Shown here: positions 32,991 through 36,805 of the stretch, piece after piece
How positions within the stretch are numbered: position 1 is the stretch's first letter
Layout: each line of letters starts with the position of its first letter
Origin: Alphaproteobacteria bacterium
GTDB lineage: Bacteria; Pseudomonadota; Alphaproteobacteria; GCA-2746255
Assembly (NCBI GenBank): GCA_965249135.1
Contig: OZ252220.1
Span: 2,054,283 to 2,118,282 of the forward strand
DNA length: 64,000 bases
Reading direction: 5' to 3'
Made by a program: the position numbers and the translations under genes
The notes under the pieces: model-generated
What the model was told of the DNA's origin: nothing
The model's input: only the letters and a program-made list of their open reading frames with translations
Databases searched by the model: none

Positions 32991-34892
32991 ATGCCCGAGG
33001 GCACGAAGACCGCCGCGAGGGCGCATCACAAGATCCGCTCGATGGCGGTCTCGGGCGGCTTTCTCGACGGCGCCCAACTCGACTTCGCGGACGGGCTGAA
33101 CTGCATCATCGGCGGCCGCGGCACCGGCAAGACGGCGGTGCTGGAGTTCATCCGCTACCTTCTGGGTCCGATGCCGGACACTCCCGAGGGCAAGACCCGC
33201 GGCAGAGCAATCGAGGGGCTGATCCGGGGCAATCTCGGCAGCGGCACCATCGGCCTCGACGTCGAGACCAAGCACGGCACGCGCTATCGCGCCGAGCGGC
33301 CGTGGGACGATACGAGCCAGGTGCTGGACGCAGACGGCGCGCCGGTCGCGGTGTCGCTCGATCGCGACCTGGTGTTCAAGGCCGACATCTACAGCCAGAA
33401 CGAGATCGAGGAGATCGCCACTACGCCAAGATTCCAGCTGTCGCTGATCGACAAGTTCGAGGAAGAAGCGATCCGCGAGACCGGCGCGGAGATCGCCAAG
33501 CTGACCCGGGCCATCGAGCAAAGCGCACACGATCTGCGAGCCCTCGACCGCAACATCGGAGAGATCGAGGACGTGGTGCCGGAGATCGACATCGTCGCCA
33601 AGCGGCTGCAGGAGATGCAGGCTGTCGATGGCCCCGAGGCCGAGCTGATCAATACCGCGCACGAGCACAAGGCGCTGCGGGCGCGGGAAGCGGAGGCGCT
33701 CGCCGACCTTCGGCAAGTGGTCGACCGCTTCGCGGACGAGTTCGAGCGGCTTGCCGGCGCCGTGGCCGAGGACTGCGCCACCGCGCTCGGCGACGGGTTC
33801 GAGAACGGCCCCAACGGCGCGGTCTTCGCCCAGGCTGCCGATGTGGTTGCGGAGTATACGAGCGCGATCCGCGAGACCGTGCCGGCGATCGGGAGACAGC
33901 GCGCCGCCGCGGCCGCGGCCCTTGACACCCTGGCCGTGGGGCTTGCCGGCGGACACGCGCGCCAGGAGCAGCACTATCGCGAGCTGGTCGCACGCTCGGC
34001 CGAGGAGCAGGCACAGGCGGCCGAGCGGGCGAGGCTGCAGCAGCGGCATCTGGAGTTGTCCAAGACGCAAGGCCAACTCGACGGCTTGAAGCGCAGGCGC
34101 CAGAAGTGCGAGGCCGAGCACCGCAAGATGACGGCACGGCTGTCGGAACTGCGCGACCGGCGTTTCGGGTTGCGCAAGGAGATCGCCGAGCGGCTGAGCG
34201 CGGCGCTGGCCCCCACCATCCGGGTCTCGATCGCCCAGGCCGGTGATCGTTCGGCTTACGAGCAGTATTTGCGGGAAGCGCTCAAGGGCTCGGGCACCAG
34301 GTACGGCCAGATCGTGGCGCAGATCGTCGCCAACCTGGCGCCGGAGGAATTGCCGCCGATCGTCCGCCGGGGCGACACGGAGCGCCTGGCGGAGCACGCC
34401 GGCATCGGCGAGGACCAGGGCGAGCGCATCATCGATCATCTCCGGGACGGCGACCACGCCTTCAGGCTCGAGACCGTGGAGCTCGCCGACGAGCTGCTGA
34501 TCGAGCTCAAGGACGGCGAGGCCTACAAGAACGCGGCCGATCTCTCGACCGGCCAGCGCTGCACGGTGATCCTGCCGATCCTGCTGTTGGAGAGCGAGCG
34601 CCCGCTGCTGATCGATCAGCCCGAGGACAATCTCGACAACGCCTTCGTCTACGACACCATCGTCAAAAGCCTGCGCGAGGCCAAGGGCGGGAGGCAGCTG
34701 ATCTTCGTCACCCACAACCCCAACATCCCGGTGCTCGGCGAGGCCGAGCGGGTGTTCGTGTTTGCTTCGGACGGAAGGCGCGGCAGCGTGACCCGCGTGG
34801 GCCCGGTAGACGAGGTCAAGGGCGAGATCGAGCATCTGCTGGAAGGCGGCGCCGAGGCCTTCAAGCTGAGAATGCGCAAGTACGGCCATTGA
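32991..34892 (+). CDS. SMC/ABC-type coiled-coil ATPase (TrlF/Ppl-like ATPase, no PHP domain)
   Basis: Walker A GGRGTGKT, Q-loop YSQNE, long coiled coil, signature LSTGQ, Walker B LLIDQPEDNLD, H-loop VTHN. Confidence 0.85.
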   Translation: MPEGTKTAARAHHKIRSMAVSGGFLDGAQLDFADGLNCIIGGRGTGKTAVLEFIRYLLGPMPDTPEGKTRGRAIEGLIRGNLGSGTIGLDVETKHGTRYRAERPWDDTSQVLDADGAPVAVSLDRDLVFKADIYSQNEIEEIATTPRFQLSLIDKFEEEAIRETGAEIAKLTRAIEQSAHDLRALDRNIGEIEDVVPEIDIVAKRLQEMQAVDGPEAELINTAHEHKALRAREAEALADLRQVVDRFADEFERLAGAVAEDCATALGDGFENGPNGAVFAQAADVVAEYTSAIRETVPAIGRQRAAAAAALDTLAVGLAGGHARQEQHYRELVARSAEEQAQAAERARLQQRHLELSKTQGQLDGLKRRRQKCEAEHRKMTARLSELRDRRFGLRKEIAERLSAALAPTIRVSIAQAGDRSAYEQYLREALKGSGTRYGQIVAQIVANLAPEELPPIVRRGDTERLAEHAGIGEDQGERIIDHLRDGDHAFRLETVELADELLIELKDGEAYKNAADLSTGQRCTVILPILLLESERPLLIDQPEDNLDNAFVYDTIVKSLREAKGGRQLIFVTHNPNIPVLGEAERVFVFASDGRRGSVTRVGPVDEVKGEIEHLLEGGAEAFKLRMRKYGH

Positions 34893-34899
34893 GGGAAGC

Positions 34900-36024
34900 A
34901 TGATGGCGGACGCGGCACGGACGCTGCTCGATGATCTCGAATCCGACGACTGGAGCACGGTGCGCGACGCGGTCGAGACCGCAGGCGACCGGCTGCGCCG
35001 AAGGCGCCTCGACGCCGAGCTGGCCGAGGCCATCGGCGTGCGGCTCTACGGCCTTGCGTCCCACCCCAAGTGGCAGGTCCGCAAGGCGGTTGCCCACGCA
35101 CTCCTCTATCTGCGCCACGAGCGCTTTCATGCCGCCATCGCCCGCATCATCGACGACGACAATGTGTGGGTACGCGACGCCGCGCGGCGGACTTTCCAGC
35201 GGCGCACCGAGGTCACCCGGGCGGATATCCACAGCGATGATCACGGCGACCGGACGCTCGCGCTTCTGAACGGGCTTGAGGCGCGGTACGGGCCGCGGGC
35301 GCGCAGGGCGGCGCACAGGCTCGCCGATCAAATGGACGAGACCTTCGTGCGCATGGCCTATCACGAGATGATCCGGATCATTTCCCCGCTCGATGCCGAG
35401 TTGATCAATCTGGAGCGCGAGCTCGCCGACACACCGGGGGCGGGCTCCGAGAGCCGGGGCAGGGTCGTGCGCGCCCAGCGGCGCGTGCGCCTGATGACGG
35501 AGTTCCTCGACAATCTGCGCGCGTTCACAACCGAAGTGCGGGGCCCCTTTACGAGCGAGGTGCTGCTGCCGCTGGCGCGCGAGGCCGAGGAGCTGGCGCT
35601 AGACGACCTCGAGCCGTCGATCGCGGCGCCGGCGATTCATGTGGCCGTCGATCCCGCGATCCGCGTCGAGGCCAACCGCTCCCGGCTCCTGCAAGCACTC
35701 ATCAATCTTCTGGTGAACGCGGTCGAGGCCTTCCGCGACGGCGGCCGGCCGGGGCGCATCGAGGTGACCGCCGAGCAGCTCGCGGGCGGCCATGTCGCGC
35801 TTAGCGTCGCCGACAACGGCCGCGGGATGGATGAAGACGCGGTCGAGGAATGCACCCAGCTCTATAGCACGGGCAGACGCGACGGCATGGGCTTCGGTCT
35901 GCCGCTCGCCAAGAAGATCGTCGAACTCGACCATCACGGCACCCTCACCATCGAGAGCGCCGAGGGAGAGGGAACCACCGTGACCATGGTGCTTCCGGTC
36001 GAGCAGTTGGGAGCGGAGGCCTAA
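34900..36024 (+). CDS. soluble histidine kinase with N-terminal HEAT-like repeats
   Basis: HEAT-like WSTVRDAV / WQVRKAVA / VWVRDAA; H-box YHEM; N-box LINLLVNA; DNGRGM; GMGFGL; no TM segment. Confidence 0.85.
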   Translation: MMADAARTLLDDLESDDWSTVRDAVETAGDRLRRRRLDAELAEAIGVRLYGLASHPKWQVRKAVAHALLYLRHERFHAAIARIIDDDNVWVRDAARRTFQRRTEVTRADIHSDDHGDRTLALLNGLEARYGPRARRAAHRLADQMDETFVRMAYHEMIRIISPLDAELINLERELADTPGAGSESRGRVVRAQRRVRLMTEFLDNLRAFTTEVRGPFTSEVLLPLAREAEELALDDLEPSIAAPAIHVAVDPAIRVEANRSRLLQALINLLVNAVEAFRDGGRPGRIEVTAEQLAGGHVALSVADNGRGMDEDAVEECTQLYSTGRRDGMGFGLPLAKKIVELDHHGTLTIESAEGEGTTVTMVLPVEQLGAEA

Positions 36025-36028
36025 ACCG

Positions 36029-36805
36029 ATGGCGTGCGACCACGCAGCTCTGATCGTCGAGGACGAGCCGGAGATGGCCGCCGCGCTGTGCGATCTGGTG
36101 GATTCCCTCGGTCACGATCCTCGCCACGCGACGACCAGGGCCGATGCGATCGAGATCCTGAACGAAGGCGGCCTCTGCTATGTGCTGCTGGACCTGCAGA
36201 TTCCGGCGCACGAGAAGTCGCTTCAGCCGCGCGTGGAGGTCGGCAAGTCGTTGTTGCTGGATATCCGCCGGCGCTATCCGGGCCGTGTCGCGGGCGCCGC
36301 GCACGACATCCATCTCCTGCCGGTGCTGGTGGTGAGCGGCCAGGCCAAGGATCACGACGATGTGGTGCAGGCCCTGCAGGAGGGCGGGGACGACTTCGTG
36401 CGTAAACCGCTGAGCCTCGATGACCGGGGCCCCGGTGCCAAGATCGGGCAATGCCTGAACCGCAGCGGGCGGTCCGATCATGGGGCCTGCTATGGGGCAA
36501 CGGTCGTGGCCACCGGCGCTGCGGACCGCGGCGGAGCCAAGCCGCCGTTCACGCACACGGCCGATTACTCGGAAGTGACCTTGAACGGCGAGACGTATCT
36601 CTTCACCGGCTTCGTTCAGCGTGAAGTCATCCGCCTCCTTCACGAGGCCGTCAATAACGATCGGCCCTGGCAGCCCGGTAAAGGGGTCCTGTACGAGGCG
36701 GGTTCGACCAACGCGAAGATGATCAACCTGTTCAGGGATCATCCTTGCTGGGGCACTCTGATCGAGTCCAACAGGCGCGGGCCCTACCGTCTAAAAACCG
36801 AGTAG
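36029..36805 (+). CDS. response regulator with C-terminal putative winged-helix DNA-binding domain
   Basis: IVEDE, phospho-acceptor LLDLQIP, VSG, KP; C-terminal domain ends ESNRRGPYRL. Confidence 0.85.
   Translation: MACDHAALIVEDEPEMAAALCDLVDSLGHDPRHATTRADAIEILNEGGLCYVLLDLQIPAHEKSLQPRVEVGKSLLLDIRRRYPGRVAGAAHDIHLLPVLVVSGQAKDHDDVVQALQEGGDDFVRKPLSLDDRGPGAKIGQCLNRSGRSDHGACYGATVVATGAADRGGAKPPFTHTADYSEVTLNGETYLFTGFVQREVIRLLHEAVNNDRPWQPGKGVLYEAGSTNAKMINLFRDHPCWGTLIESNRRGPYRLKTE

Follow-up and report, generated by a model that had tools for sequence, protein, structure and literature searches.

What kind of control gene can a temperate element carry between its recombinase and its early operon? In prophages and in integrative and conjugative elements (ICEs), this slot can hold CI/Cro or ImmR/ImmA switches. 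We analyzed a stretch of 64,000 nucleotides from an alphaproteobacterium (GTDB lineage GCA-2746255; assembly GCA_965249135.1, contig OZ252220.1, positions 2,054,283 to 2,118,282), referred to here as the window, in which the slot of a decayed prophage is filled by three adjacent genes encoding an SMC/Rad50-like ATP-binding cassette (ABC) ATPase, a histidine kinase and a response regulator. An earlier annotation of this DNA, the original prediction, had proposed these genes as a new signalling system, in which the ATPase senses a stimulus and signals through HEAT repeats of the kinase into a phosphorelay that switches on the downstream operon in place of a CI-type repressor. We found that the triad is a real module with near-absolute linkage, and we lean, by a small measure, towards regarding it as a portable, horizontally mobile sensor-kinase-regulator cassette that switches the adjacent operon. 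The open reading frames (ORFs) concerned are as follows.

32991-34892, + strand: SMC/Rad50-like ABC ATPase ORF, 633 aa
34900-36024, + strand: histidine kinase ORF, 374 aa
36029-36805, + strand: response regulator ORF, 258 aa
36944-37168, + strand: xis-like HTH_17 ORF (Pfam HTH_17, 6e-9), which opens the downstream early operon

The intergenic gaps are 7 bp between the ATPase and the kinase and 4 bp between the kinase and the regulator, and a spacer of 138 bp (36806-36943) separates the regulator from the xis-like gene. All three ORFs are full length with every catalytic residue present, so that the triad is intact and tightly coupled, as had been claimed. A second possible start of the ATPase is GTG 32913, and the family consensus N-terminus favors ATG 32991.

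Linkage and spread of the triad

A genome scan by ATPase gave at least 563 loci, and 80 of these were retained. A kinase homologue lay directly downstream of the ATPase in 75 of these 80 loci, and the regulator was found in 71. Both genes were missing from L012, L016 and L027, two of which have a truncated ATPase; the other misses comprised divergent kinases (L051, L062), contig ends (L031, L032) and loci in which the regulator was undetected (L052, L061, L066, L073). Across loci, the gaps between the triad genes were mostly -11 to +13 bp, and the same order recurs in hundreds of loci. We also performed the reverse search, by the HEAT domain alone, which gave 80 metagenome loci and sampled only those with the motif KWEVR[KR][AS][VL]A. 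The ATPase was upstream in all 72 loci with room for it, and the regulator was downstream in 66 of 67. Likewise, 33 of the 37 IMG/VR viral contigs with a full-length ATPase relative carried the kinase and 30 carried the regulator, and neither gene accompanied IMG/VR ATPases of 30% identity or less. Co-occurrence in other genomes, which the original prediction had set as a test, is thus borne out in both the forward and the reverse direction.

The triad spans at least eight phyla, and its carriers include Alphaproteobacteria, Magnetococcales, Myxococcota, Acidobacteriota, Planctomycetota, Verrucomicrobiota, Gemmatimonadota and Chloroflexota. Cultured carriers are Aquamicrobium aerolatum DSM 21857, Chthoniobacter flavus Ellin428 and Magnetococcus marinus MC-1. 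The cassette is patchily distributed, with several copies in some genomes (the pairs L003/L015 and L068/L074). The ratio of nonsynonymous to synonymous substitution rates (dN/dS) was 0.18-0.35 for all three genes when the window was compared with loci L002, L004 and L005.

Searches of PADLOC-DB 2.0, NCBIfam and the literature, which did not cover the ABC-ATPase classification of Krishnan et al. 2020 (it may mention the clade), gave no description of the triad. In PADLOC-DB 2.0 the ATPase had partial matches only, to Ppl (PDLC02208, 8e-19) and LmuB, and there was nothing meaningful for the kinase (best TmtA, 0.0019) or the regulator (best SduA, 0.00074), both of these values being at noise level. 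Apparently, then, the triad is undescribed as a signalling cassette, and its non-assignment to a named system of PADLOC-DB 2.0 agrees with what had been suspected.

Protein families and the predicted ATPase-kinase contact

The ATPase belongs to the Ppl/TrlF-type SMC-like ATPases but lacks their PHP nuclease domain. It matches AAA_23, AAA_21 and SMC_N in Pfam, which detected no PHP or nuclease domain. The protein has the motifs GGRGTGKT, LSTGQ, DQPEDNLD and VTHN, with little or no variation across 71 relatives; K47, Q136, LSTGQ (518-522), D542, D549 and H575 are conserved, and a coiled coil stands between the head halves. A full ABC/SMC motif set with a long coiled coil and no PHP or nuclease domain had been read from this gene before, and the conservation, the Pfam search and a predicted model with a split head (predicted local distance difference test, pLDDT, 86.3) all agree with it. 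There is one exception among the ABC motifs. In ABC ATPases, the Walker B aspartate is usually followed by the catalytic glutamate; here the following residue is Q543 (codon 34617-34619, in DQPEDN), which is glutamine in all 71 aligned ATPases. The model divides the protein as follows.

Residues 14-134: N-terminal half of the head
Residues 146-406: coiled coil
Residues 410-493: inserted helical domain
Residues 499-631: C-terminal half of the head

The closest folds to this model are JetC, SMC, MukB, Rad50 and LmuB, and a sequence search of the PDB with the ATPase gave weak SMC head matches only. We also observed a conserved G273-P274-N275 (33807-33815; N275 invariant) at the modelled coiled-coil tip. 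It occupies the position of the Rad50 zinc hook and may serve dimerisation or target contact.

Among NCBIfam families, TrlF was the nearest (E 2e-89), followed by Spaf_1101 and Ppl. All three curated cut-offs (NF042955, NF045780 and NF045781) were higher than the scores obtained: the TrlF model (NF045780) was covered from position 286 to 944 of 944 with 301.5 bits vs 350, NF045781 scored 158 vs 475, and Ppl (NF042955) scored 107 bits vs 1000, with the match confined to the C-terminal part of the Ppl models. A profile search against 1.84 billion representatives gave 2787 proteins (50%-identity clusters) at E <=1e-30, a number that includes PHP-fused relatives. The best 150 matches were almost all 600-660 aa in length, and forms of 855-876 aa, presumably PHP-fused, appeared near the bottom of the list; relatives of about 640 aa number in the hundreds.

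The ATPase has the same ABC/SMC-like body with coiled coil as Ppl, TrlF and Spaf_1101, along with their DQPEDN Walker B region and THNPNIP motif, whereas those proteins have an N-terminal PHP domain that the 633-aa protein lacks, its TrlF match beginning only at model position 286. In the temperature-restriction (TRL) operon of Photorhabdus, TrlF is the gene annotated as 'histidinol phosphatase', and its partners are TrlR and the RecG-like TrlG (PMC7554251). In contrast, the ATPase studied here is partnered by a histidine kinase and a response regulator. With Lamassu (LmuB) and Wadjet (JetC) it shares a similar fold and the idea of an SMC-like ATPase that senses DNA and signals to a partner. 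However, the sequence matches to LmuB and JetC are weak and partial, the neighbouring genes include neither LmuA/LmuC nor JetA/JetB/JetD, and the output of the triad would be a phosphorelay to a transcription factor instead of a nuclease.

The domains of the two partner proteins were assigned as follows, from Pfam, alignment and profile for the kinase and from Pfam and a predicted model for the regulator.

Kinase: HEAT repeats at residues ~1-135, then a dimerization and histidine phosphotransfer (DHp) domain with H155 (codon 35362-35364), then HATPase_c
Regulator: receiver with D55 (codon 36191-36193) and a predicted C-terminal winged helix at residues ~174-258 (bases 36548-36802)

The kinase matched HATPase_c in Pfam with 82.7 bits (cut-off 26.4), and H155, N269, N273, G307, G309, G331 and G333 are the same in all 71 sequences aligned. 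The lone kinase sequence gave sub-threshold matches only to Pfam HEAT families (HEAT_2, E 0.0047), whereas a profile built from 71 kinase N-terminal domains (145 residues) matched solved HEAT proteins, namely alphaRep at 1.4e-24 and the PP2A A subunit at 7e-16. The regulator matched Response_reg with 38.3 bits (cut-off 30.2); D12, D55, K126 and P127 do not vary across 67 sequences, and the C-terminal domain, ending in G-x-Y-R-L, is conserved family-wide. Its model (pLDDT 88.5) aligned over both domains with MtrA, CosR, VanR, PhoP-DNA and KdpE-DNA at E ~1e-10, so that, as modelled, the regulator folds like OmpR/PhoB. HEAT-like repeats ahead of intact H, N and G boxes and an intact receiver, as read in the original prediction, are thereby confirmed, and the model agrees with its putative DNA-binding domain, for which Pfam Trans_reg_C gave no match. 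Planctomycete regulators have an extra, second C-terminal winged helix (e.g. loci L044 and L080). Regulator length ranges from 255 to 464 aa, and some Myxococcales copies seem to duplicate the winged-helix module (L025:5272-6594, L028:4049-5443). The pair resembles OmpR/PhoB two-component systems in its kinase boxes, its regulator with a receiver and a predicted winged helix and its likely tandem direct-repeat operators, but differs from the usual ones in that the kinase has HEAT repeats only, without a membrane or known ligand domain, and has an obligate third, SMC-like partner.

We then modelled a complex of the full-length ATPase and kinase residues 1-366, with a 71-row alignment for each. 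The interaction prediction score from aligned errors (ipSAE) for the ATPase-kinase pair was 0.69, 0.70 and 0.69, and the best of three controls reached 0.01. In calibration, 58 of 80 solved complexes attained the ipSAE mark, as did 2 of 110 mismatched pairs; these counts are only rough owing to the use of our own alignments. Contacts agreed between runs to at least 95%, and the pLDDT of the partner was at least 77. The two sides of the contact in the complex model are as follows.

34954-35190, + strand: kinase side, HEAT residues 19-97
34134-34493, + strand: ATPase side, residues 382-501 (LSELRDxRFxLRK, QAGDR and the helical insert)

On the kinase, the contact residues are 19, 57-59, 62, 66, 87-90, 92-94 and 97, within the HEAT motifs PKWEVRK and DDNxxVR, and W58, R61, D86 and V91 are conserved in this region. 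On the ATPase, they are 382-396, 414-420, 447-452, 469 and 501; R395 is invariant, and R388, D389, R391, Q416 and P451 are at least 90% conserved. The modelled interface lies among the most conserved positions of both families. The complex model thus supports binding of the ATPase to the HEAT domain of the kinase. The contact that had been foreseen was predicted, but its site is the coiled-coil base with the inserted helical domain and not the nucleotide-binding head.

The control slot, the repeat array and other settings

In relatives, a serine recombinase on the minus strand is followed by the triad and the xis-like gene, and then by AAA_24, DUF669, nuclease and helicase genes. The order of recombinase, triad and replication genes is kept in Alphaproteobacteria, Magnetococcales and Planctomycetota. 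By iterative search, 34 of the 122 loci with enough room had the xis-like gene downstream, and all but one of these 34 belong to the clade with ATPase identity of at least 62%; an ORF matching Pfam HTH_17 was seen near the triad in L018. Among the ORFs of the window itself, an iterative search seeded with XRE and ImmA found no XRE/CI-type or ImmA-type gene, as expected from the earlier statement that no CI is visible there.

The same genome contains a sister element at 712000-722300 (L151) with the same replication genes, DUF2924 and serine recombinase. Its slot holds an XRE HTH_3 gene, a possibly frameshifted HEXXH ORF (ImmA-like in appearance, with no Pfam match) and a sigma-70 region-4 protein. 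We also collected viral contig loci anchored on xis, taking the best 80 of at least 551 (L232-L311). The ATPase or kinase was in none of these 80. XRE was found in 40, ImmA in 37, a 454-aa unknown protein in 49 and a protein with the winged-helix C-terminus of the regulator in 59. A two-gene module lies directly 5' of xis in such loci (e.g. L239:4555-6841) and encodes a protein of ~454 aa, which never occurs in triad loci, and one of ~309 aa whose last ~85 residues resemble the winged helix of the regulator. Within the triad clade, XRE or ImmA genes were found up to 4 kb upstream in 4 of 27 loci. Because the sister phages carry XRE/ImmA in the same slot, none of the 80 xis loci has the ATPase or kinase and the window is without XRE/ImmA, the triad and XRE/ImmA look like alternative control modules for one early-operon family.

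The triad occupies the slot of the CI/Cro and ImmR/ImmA switches, although it has no sequence relation to them, is codirectional with the early operon and would employ phosphorylation instead of repressor proteolysis. The original prediction had it replace a CI-type repressor. The XRE and ImmA-like genes in the slot of sister prophages agree with this, but the cassette precedes CBASS (cyclic oligonucleotide-based antiphage signalling system), TIR, HNH or sigma-54-activator genes outside the clade, and it is therefore a general regulatory cassette and not specifically a substitute for a prophage repressor. Placement upstream of xis-like genes, which the original prediction had wished to see checked, is limited to the alphaproteobacterial clade.

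The spacer in front of the xis-like gene, which the original prediction had singled out for a reporter fusion, contains the following feature.

36819-36873, + strand: operator-like array of four direct repeats (C/G)ACCCGTC, starting at 36819, 36830, 36841 and 36863, with an 11-bp period

This motif occurs 12 times in the window vs 7.3 expected, and these four copies are clustered on one strand. Relatives have an array at the same offset past the regulator stop codon, with the same 11-bp period and other units such as CCATCCATCA and GATCCCCCG. At least three phased repeats were present in 23, and at least four in 16, of 38 distinct post-regulator regions of the clade, compared with 167 and 18, respectively, of 3906 control windows. 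OmpR/PhoB regulators are known to recognise tandem direct repeats spaced by roughly one helical turn. The sequence 3' of the array resembles only a weak promoter, CCGACA-N17-CATCCT (read by eye). Weak promoters are typical of activator-dependent control, and this one would fit activation by the regulator. In the xis-anchored viral loci, 50-160 nt 5' of xis, we observed a terminator-like hairpin followed by 3-6 direct repeats at 11-12-bp spacing, whose unit differs from phage to phage (TCCTACC, TGCCTCC, TTTCTCC, ATCCCCC and others). Judged from these sequences, the variable repeat unit looks like an immunity-type specificity code.

Two further features lie 5' of the ATPase gene.

32835-32863, + strand: candidate cassette promoter TTGTTC-N17-TATAGT, a weak inference read by eye in an A+T-rich stretch
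32952-32983, + strand: tandem 16-nt direct repeat ACRCGGCAATCAATAC, two copies 94% identical, found by repeat search

A promoter consensus scan of 31800-37600 detected no sigma-70-type site. The repeat pair stops 8 nt 5' of the ATPase start codon.

Next, we considered the settings of the triad outside the alphaproteobacterial clade by scanning the two nearest ORFs on each side of these loci (100 upstream, 102 downstream). Upstream ORFs included helicases, WYL regulators (5), PolA (3), methylases (3) and recombinases, and downstream ORFs included SMODS cyclases (5), RtcR-like sigma-54 activators (4), HTH_3 (4), YdjM (4) and integrases. Past the regulator, the first same-strand gene encodes a CBASS cyclase in L038, L046 and, behind a possible short intervening ORF, L069, a SAVED-HNH protein in L033, a patatin in L042, a TIR protein in L060 and an HNH protein in L051. 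With L036 and L186, which were added by local searches, nine loci have defence genes (CBASS cyclase, SAVED-HNH, patatin, TIR or HNH) directly downstream. The 127 loci that had 4 kb or more of flanking sequence were then binned by ATPase identity to the window and surveyed with a limited seed set. Gene calls relied on a crude heuristic of longest ORF and G+C content at third codon positions, and the counts without a recognised neighbour are upper bounds.

ATPase identity at least 60%: 30 loci; phage/mobile 30, defence 0, none recognised 0
ATPase identity 46-59%: 18 loci; phage/mobile 8, defence 1, none recognised 7
ATPase identity 45% or less: 79 loci; phage/mobile 26, defence 8, none recognised 33

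CapW, CapH+CapP and CapK+CapS are compact, DNA-damage-responsive regulators just 5' of diverse immune operons, and the available part of the source describing them makes no mention of SMC, ABC ATPase, two-component or response regulator (PMC13373217). In the nine loci the triad has the same position, just 5' of CBASS or other immune operons, but its protein families are unrelated to those regulators. In six loci from Magnetococcales and related to these (L019, L023, L024, L026, L029 and L090), the triad lies between a divergent WYL-WCX regulator on the 5' side and an RtcR-like sigma-54 activator on the 3' side; such loci would hold three regulatory layers.

The remainder of the element in the window is decayed, and its main features besides the triad are as follows.

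37536-41295, + strand: early/replication genes, namely a conserved unknown, AAA_24 (broken by a stop), an unknown and a DEAD-box helicase with zinc ribbon
59124-59443, + strand: C-terminal remnant (~100 residues) of a large serine recombinase, matching residues ~367-470 of the recombinases that flank the triad in relatives

The AAA_24 gene is interrupted by a premature in-frame stop (38057-38059), and a PD-(D/E)XK gene changes frame at ~43.95 kb. Together with the reduction of the recombinase to its C-terminus, this gives several broken neighbours of the triad; the original prediction had spoken of many. Phage-type genes of the element include AAA_24, the DEAD-box helicase, DUF6511, a methylase, AAA_25, Fic and a gpA-type large terminase (57012-59000). 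A Fic/DOC protein with a C-terminal winged helix is encoded inside the element on the minus strand (49214-50311), opposite in strand to its neighbours. Three large minus-strand genes for surface proteins flank the phage-like region (28856-31915, 59964-62621 and 62896-63954), one with cadherin-like repeats (1019 aa) and two with autotransporter beta-domains. An rRNA operon (23000-28670) contains tRNA-Ile and tRNA-Ala and ends in tRNA-Met (28594-28670), after which G+C steps from about 56% to 62-72%. The window is the 3' end of a single 2.118-Mb contig; the high-G+C DNA runs on to the contig end and picks up again at the contig start (0-15 kb).

Proposed mechanism and its alternatives

We propose that the cassette probably converts a DNA or infection signal into gene activation. 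A Ppl/TrlF-type ATPase that has lost, or never had, the PHP domain would act as an intracellular sensor, and the sensed state would most likely be DNA: ends, damage, or replicating or foreign DNA. The coiled-coil base and inserted helical domain of the ATPase would hold the HEAT domain of the kinase and set its activity. The soluble kinase would then phosphorylate D55 of the OmpR/PhoB-like regulator, which would bind the phased direct repeats beside its own gene and switch the downstream operon, probably on. In the window, the target would be the xis-like/replication early operon of the decayed serine-recombinase prophage, with the cassette filling the XRE/ImmA-type slot, and in other phyla the same cassette would stand ahead of CBASS and other defence operons. 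We infer the role of the ATPase as sensor, the signal that it senses, activation as opposed to repression, and the binding of the array by the regulator. A more specific version, that this would be the first two-component system to have an SMC/Rad50-like DNA clamp read its stimulus, and a RecA/LexA-independent phosphorylation trigger for prophage induction and CBASS, is a tentative proposal that we would put at somewhat short of even.

Several observations weigh against this cassette reading. The evidence for the ATPase-kinase contact is the confidence of the model itself and not a measurement. The invariant Gln543 may mean that ATP hydrolysis is slow or absent while ATP binding is kept. Pfam HisKA did not match the kinase, and Pfam Trans_reg_C did not match the regulator. 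The INPHARED cultured phages contained no close full-length ATPase homologue, the best having 29% identity over 71% of the query. With the limited seed set, no mobile or defence neighbour was recognised for 33 of the 79 most divergent loci and 7 of the 18 intermediate ones. As for the array, none was found within 200 nt past the regulator in the non-alphaproteobacterial clades, and a phased array also stands 5' of xis in triad-less relatives (at least three repeats in 54 of 67 distinct xis-upstream regions). Moreover, in a Mantel analysis of 39 distinct loci, drawn from the 43 that had both an array and an ORF of 150 aa or more upstream (a few of these ORFs were mis-called, e.g. L160, L250), the repeat unit correlated with the xis protein (r 0.38, partial 0.32) as well as with the winged-helix domain (0.39, partial 0.34), and therefore the array binder is not singled out. 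Finally, the regulator had a dN/dS of 2.3-2.7 against the nearest relatives, with very few changes (dS 0.005), and the element is decayed; therefore the cassette in the window could have lost control over a working phage and may be idle.

These last points lead to the suggestion that this copy is a leftover, intact only for lack of time since the prophage decayed and controlling nothing useful. Broken neighbours, the truncated recombinase and a regulator dN/dS above 1 would agree with this. However, all three genes are full length and keep every catalytic residue, and, in comparison with the nearest relatives, the ATPase has a dN/dS of 0.26-0.32 and the kinase one of 0.34-0.40. We consider such a leftover improbable, and it would in any case concern this copy alone and not the nature of the family. 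It is also conceivable that an ordinary host two-component system lies beside the mobile element by chance, given that two-component systems are common and that no mobile or defence neighbour was recognised at 40 of the 127 loci. The near-absolute linkage to an SMC-like ATPase, the presence of the kinase downstream in 33 of the 37 viral contigs described above, the order of recombinase, triad and replication genes conserved across three phyla and the patchy distribution with several copies in some genomes make this very improbable.

More serious is the notion that anti-phage defence or superinfection exclusion is the function of the triad itself, in which a Ppl-like sensor with a phosphorelay in place of the nuclease induces defence effectors or suicidal induction and so protects the lysogen. 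Prophages often carry defence genes, the nearest named relatives of the ATPase in both PADLOC and NCBIfam are defence proteins, and CBASS, TIR or HNH genes lie directly downstream in the nine loci. There is also a precedent in Ambrosia, a reported defence system that combines restriction-modification with a kinase and a receiver-winged-helix regulator (bioRxiv 10.1101/2025.09.30.679545), although it has a methylase and an HNH nuclease and no SMC-like ATPase. However, the cassette is without an effector of its own, the loci of the clade with at least 60% identity (30 of 30) head an xis/replication operon and are not beside defence genes, and sister phages have XRE/ImmA switches in the same slot. 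We therefore think a dedicated defence system unlikely, though well worth keeping in view, and it overlaps with the cassette reading in that both contain a sensor-regulator module. A further alternative is that the cassette maintains lysogeny, the regulator repressing the early operon from the array and the ATPase-kinase pair relieving or reinforcing the repression. The array does separate the regulator gene from the early operon, and the cassette stands in for a repressor-type XRE/ImmA module. On the other hand, only a weak promoter follows the array, as is typical of activator dependence, OmpR/PhoB regulators on upstream tandem repeats usually activate, and the cassette is codirectional with the early operon whereas XRE genes are divergent. 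Thus, we assign lysogeny maintenance a low probability and continue to favor a cassette that activates its neighbouring operon.

Two-component systems are normally thought of as readers of small molecules or envelope signals. If our proposal is true, a soluble kinase with HEAT repeats only, docked on an SMC-like ATPase, would be a new input logic for two-component signalling. It would likewise add a new firing trigger for temperate elements or abortive infection beside CI/LexA, ImmR/ImmA, CapW, CapH/CapP and CapK/CapS. The family is large, spans at least eight phyla, has cultured carriers and offers defined interface residues, phospho-sites and repeats, so that the proposal is testable now. 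In addition, the 11-bp arrays of phage-specific sequence are suggestive of an immunity-like specificity system in an alphaproteobacterial prophage group that is very common.

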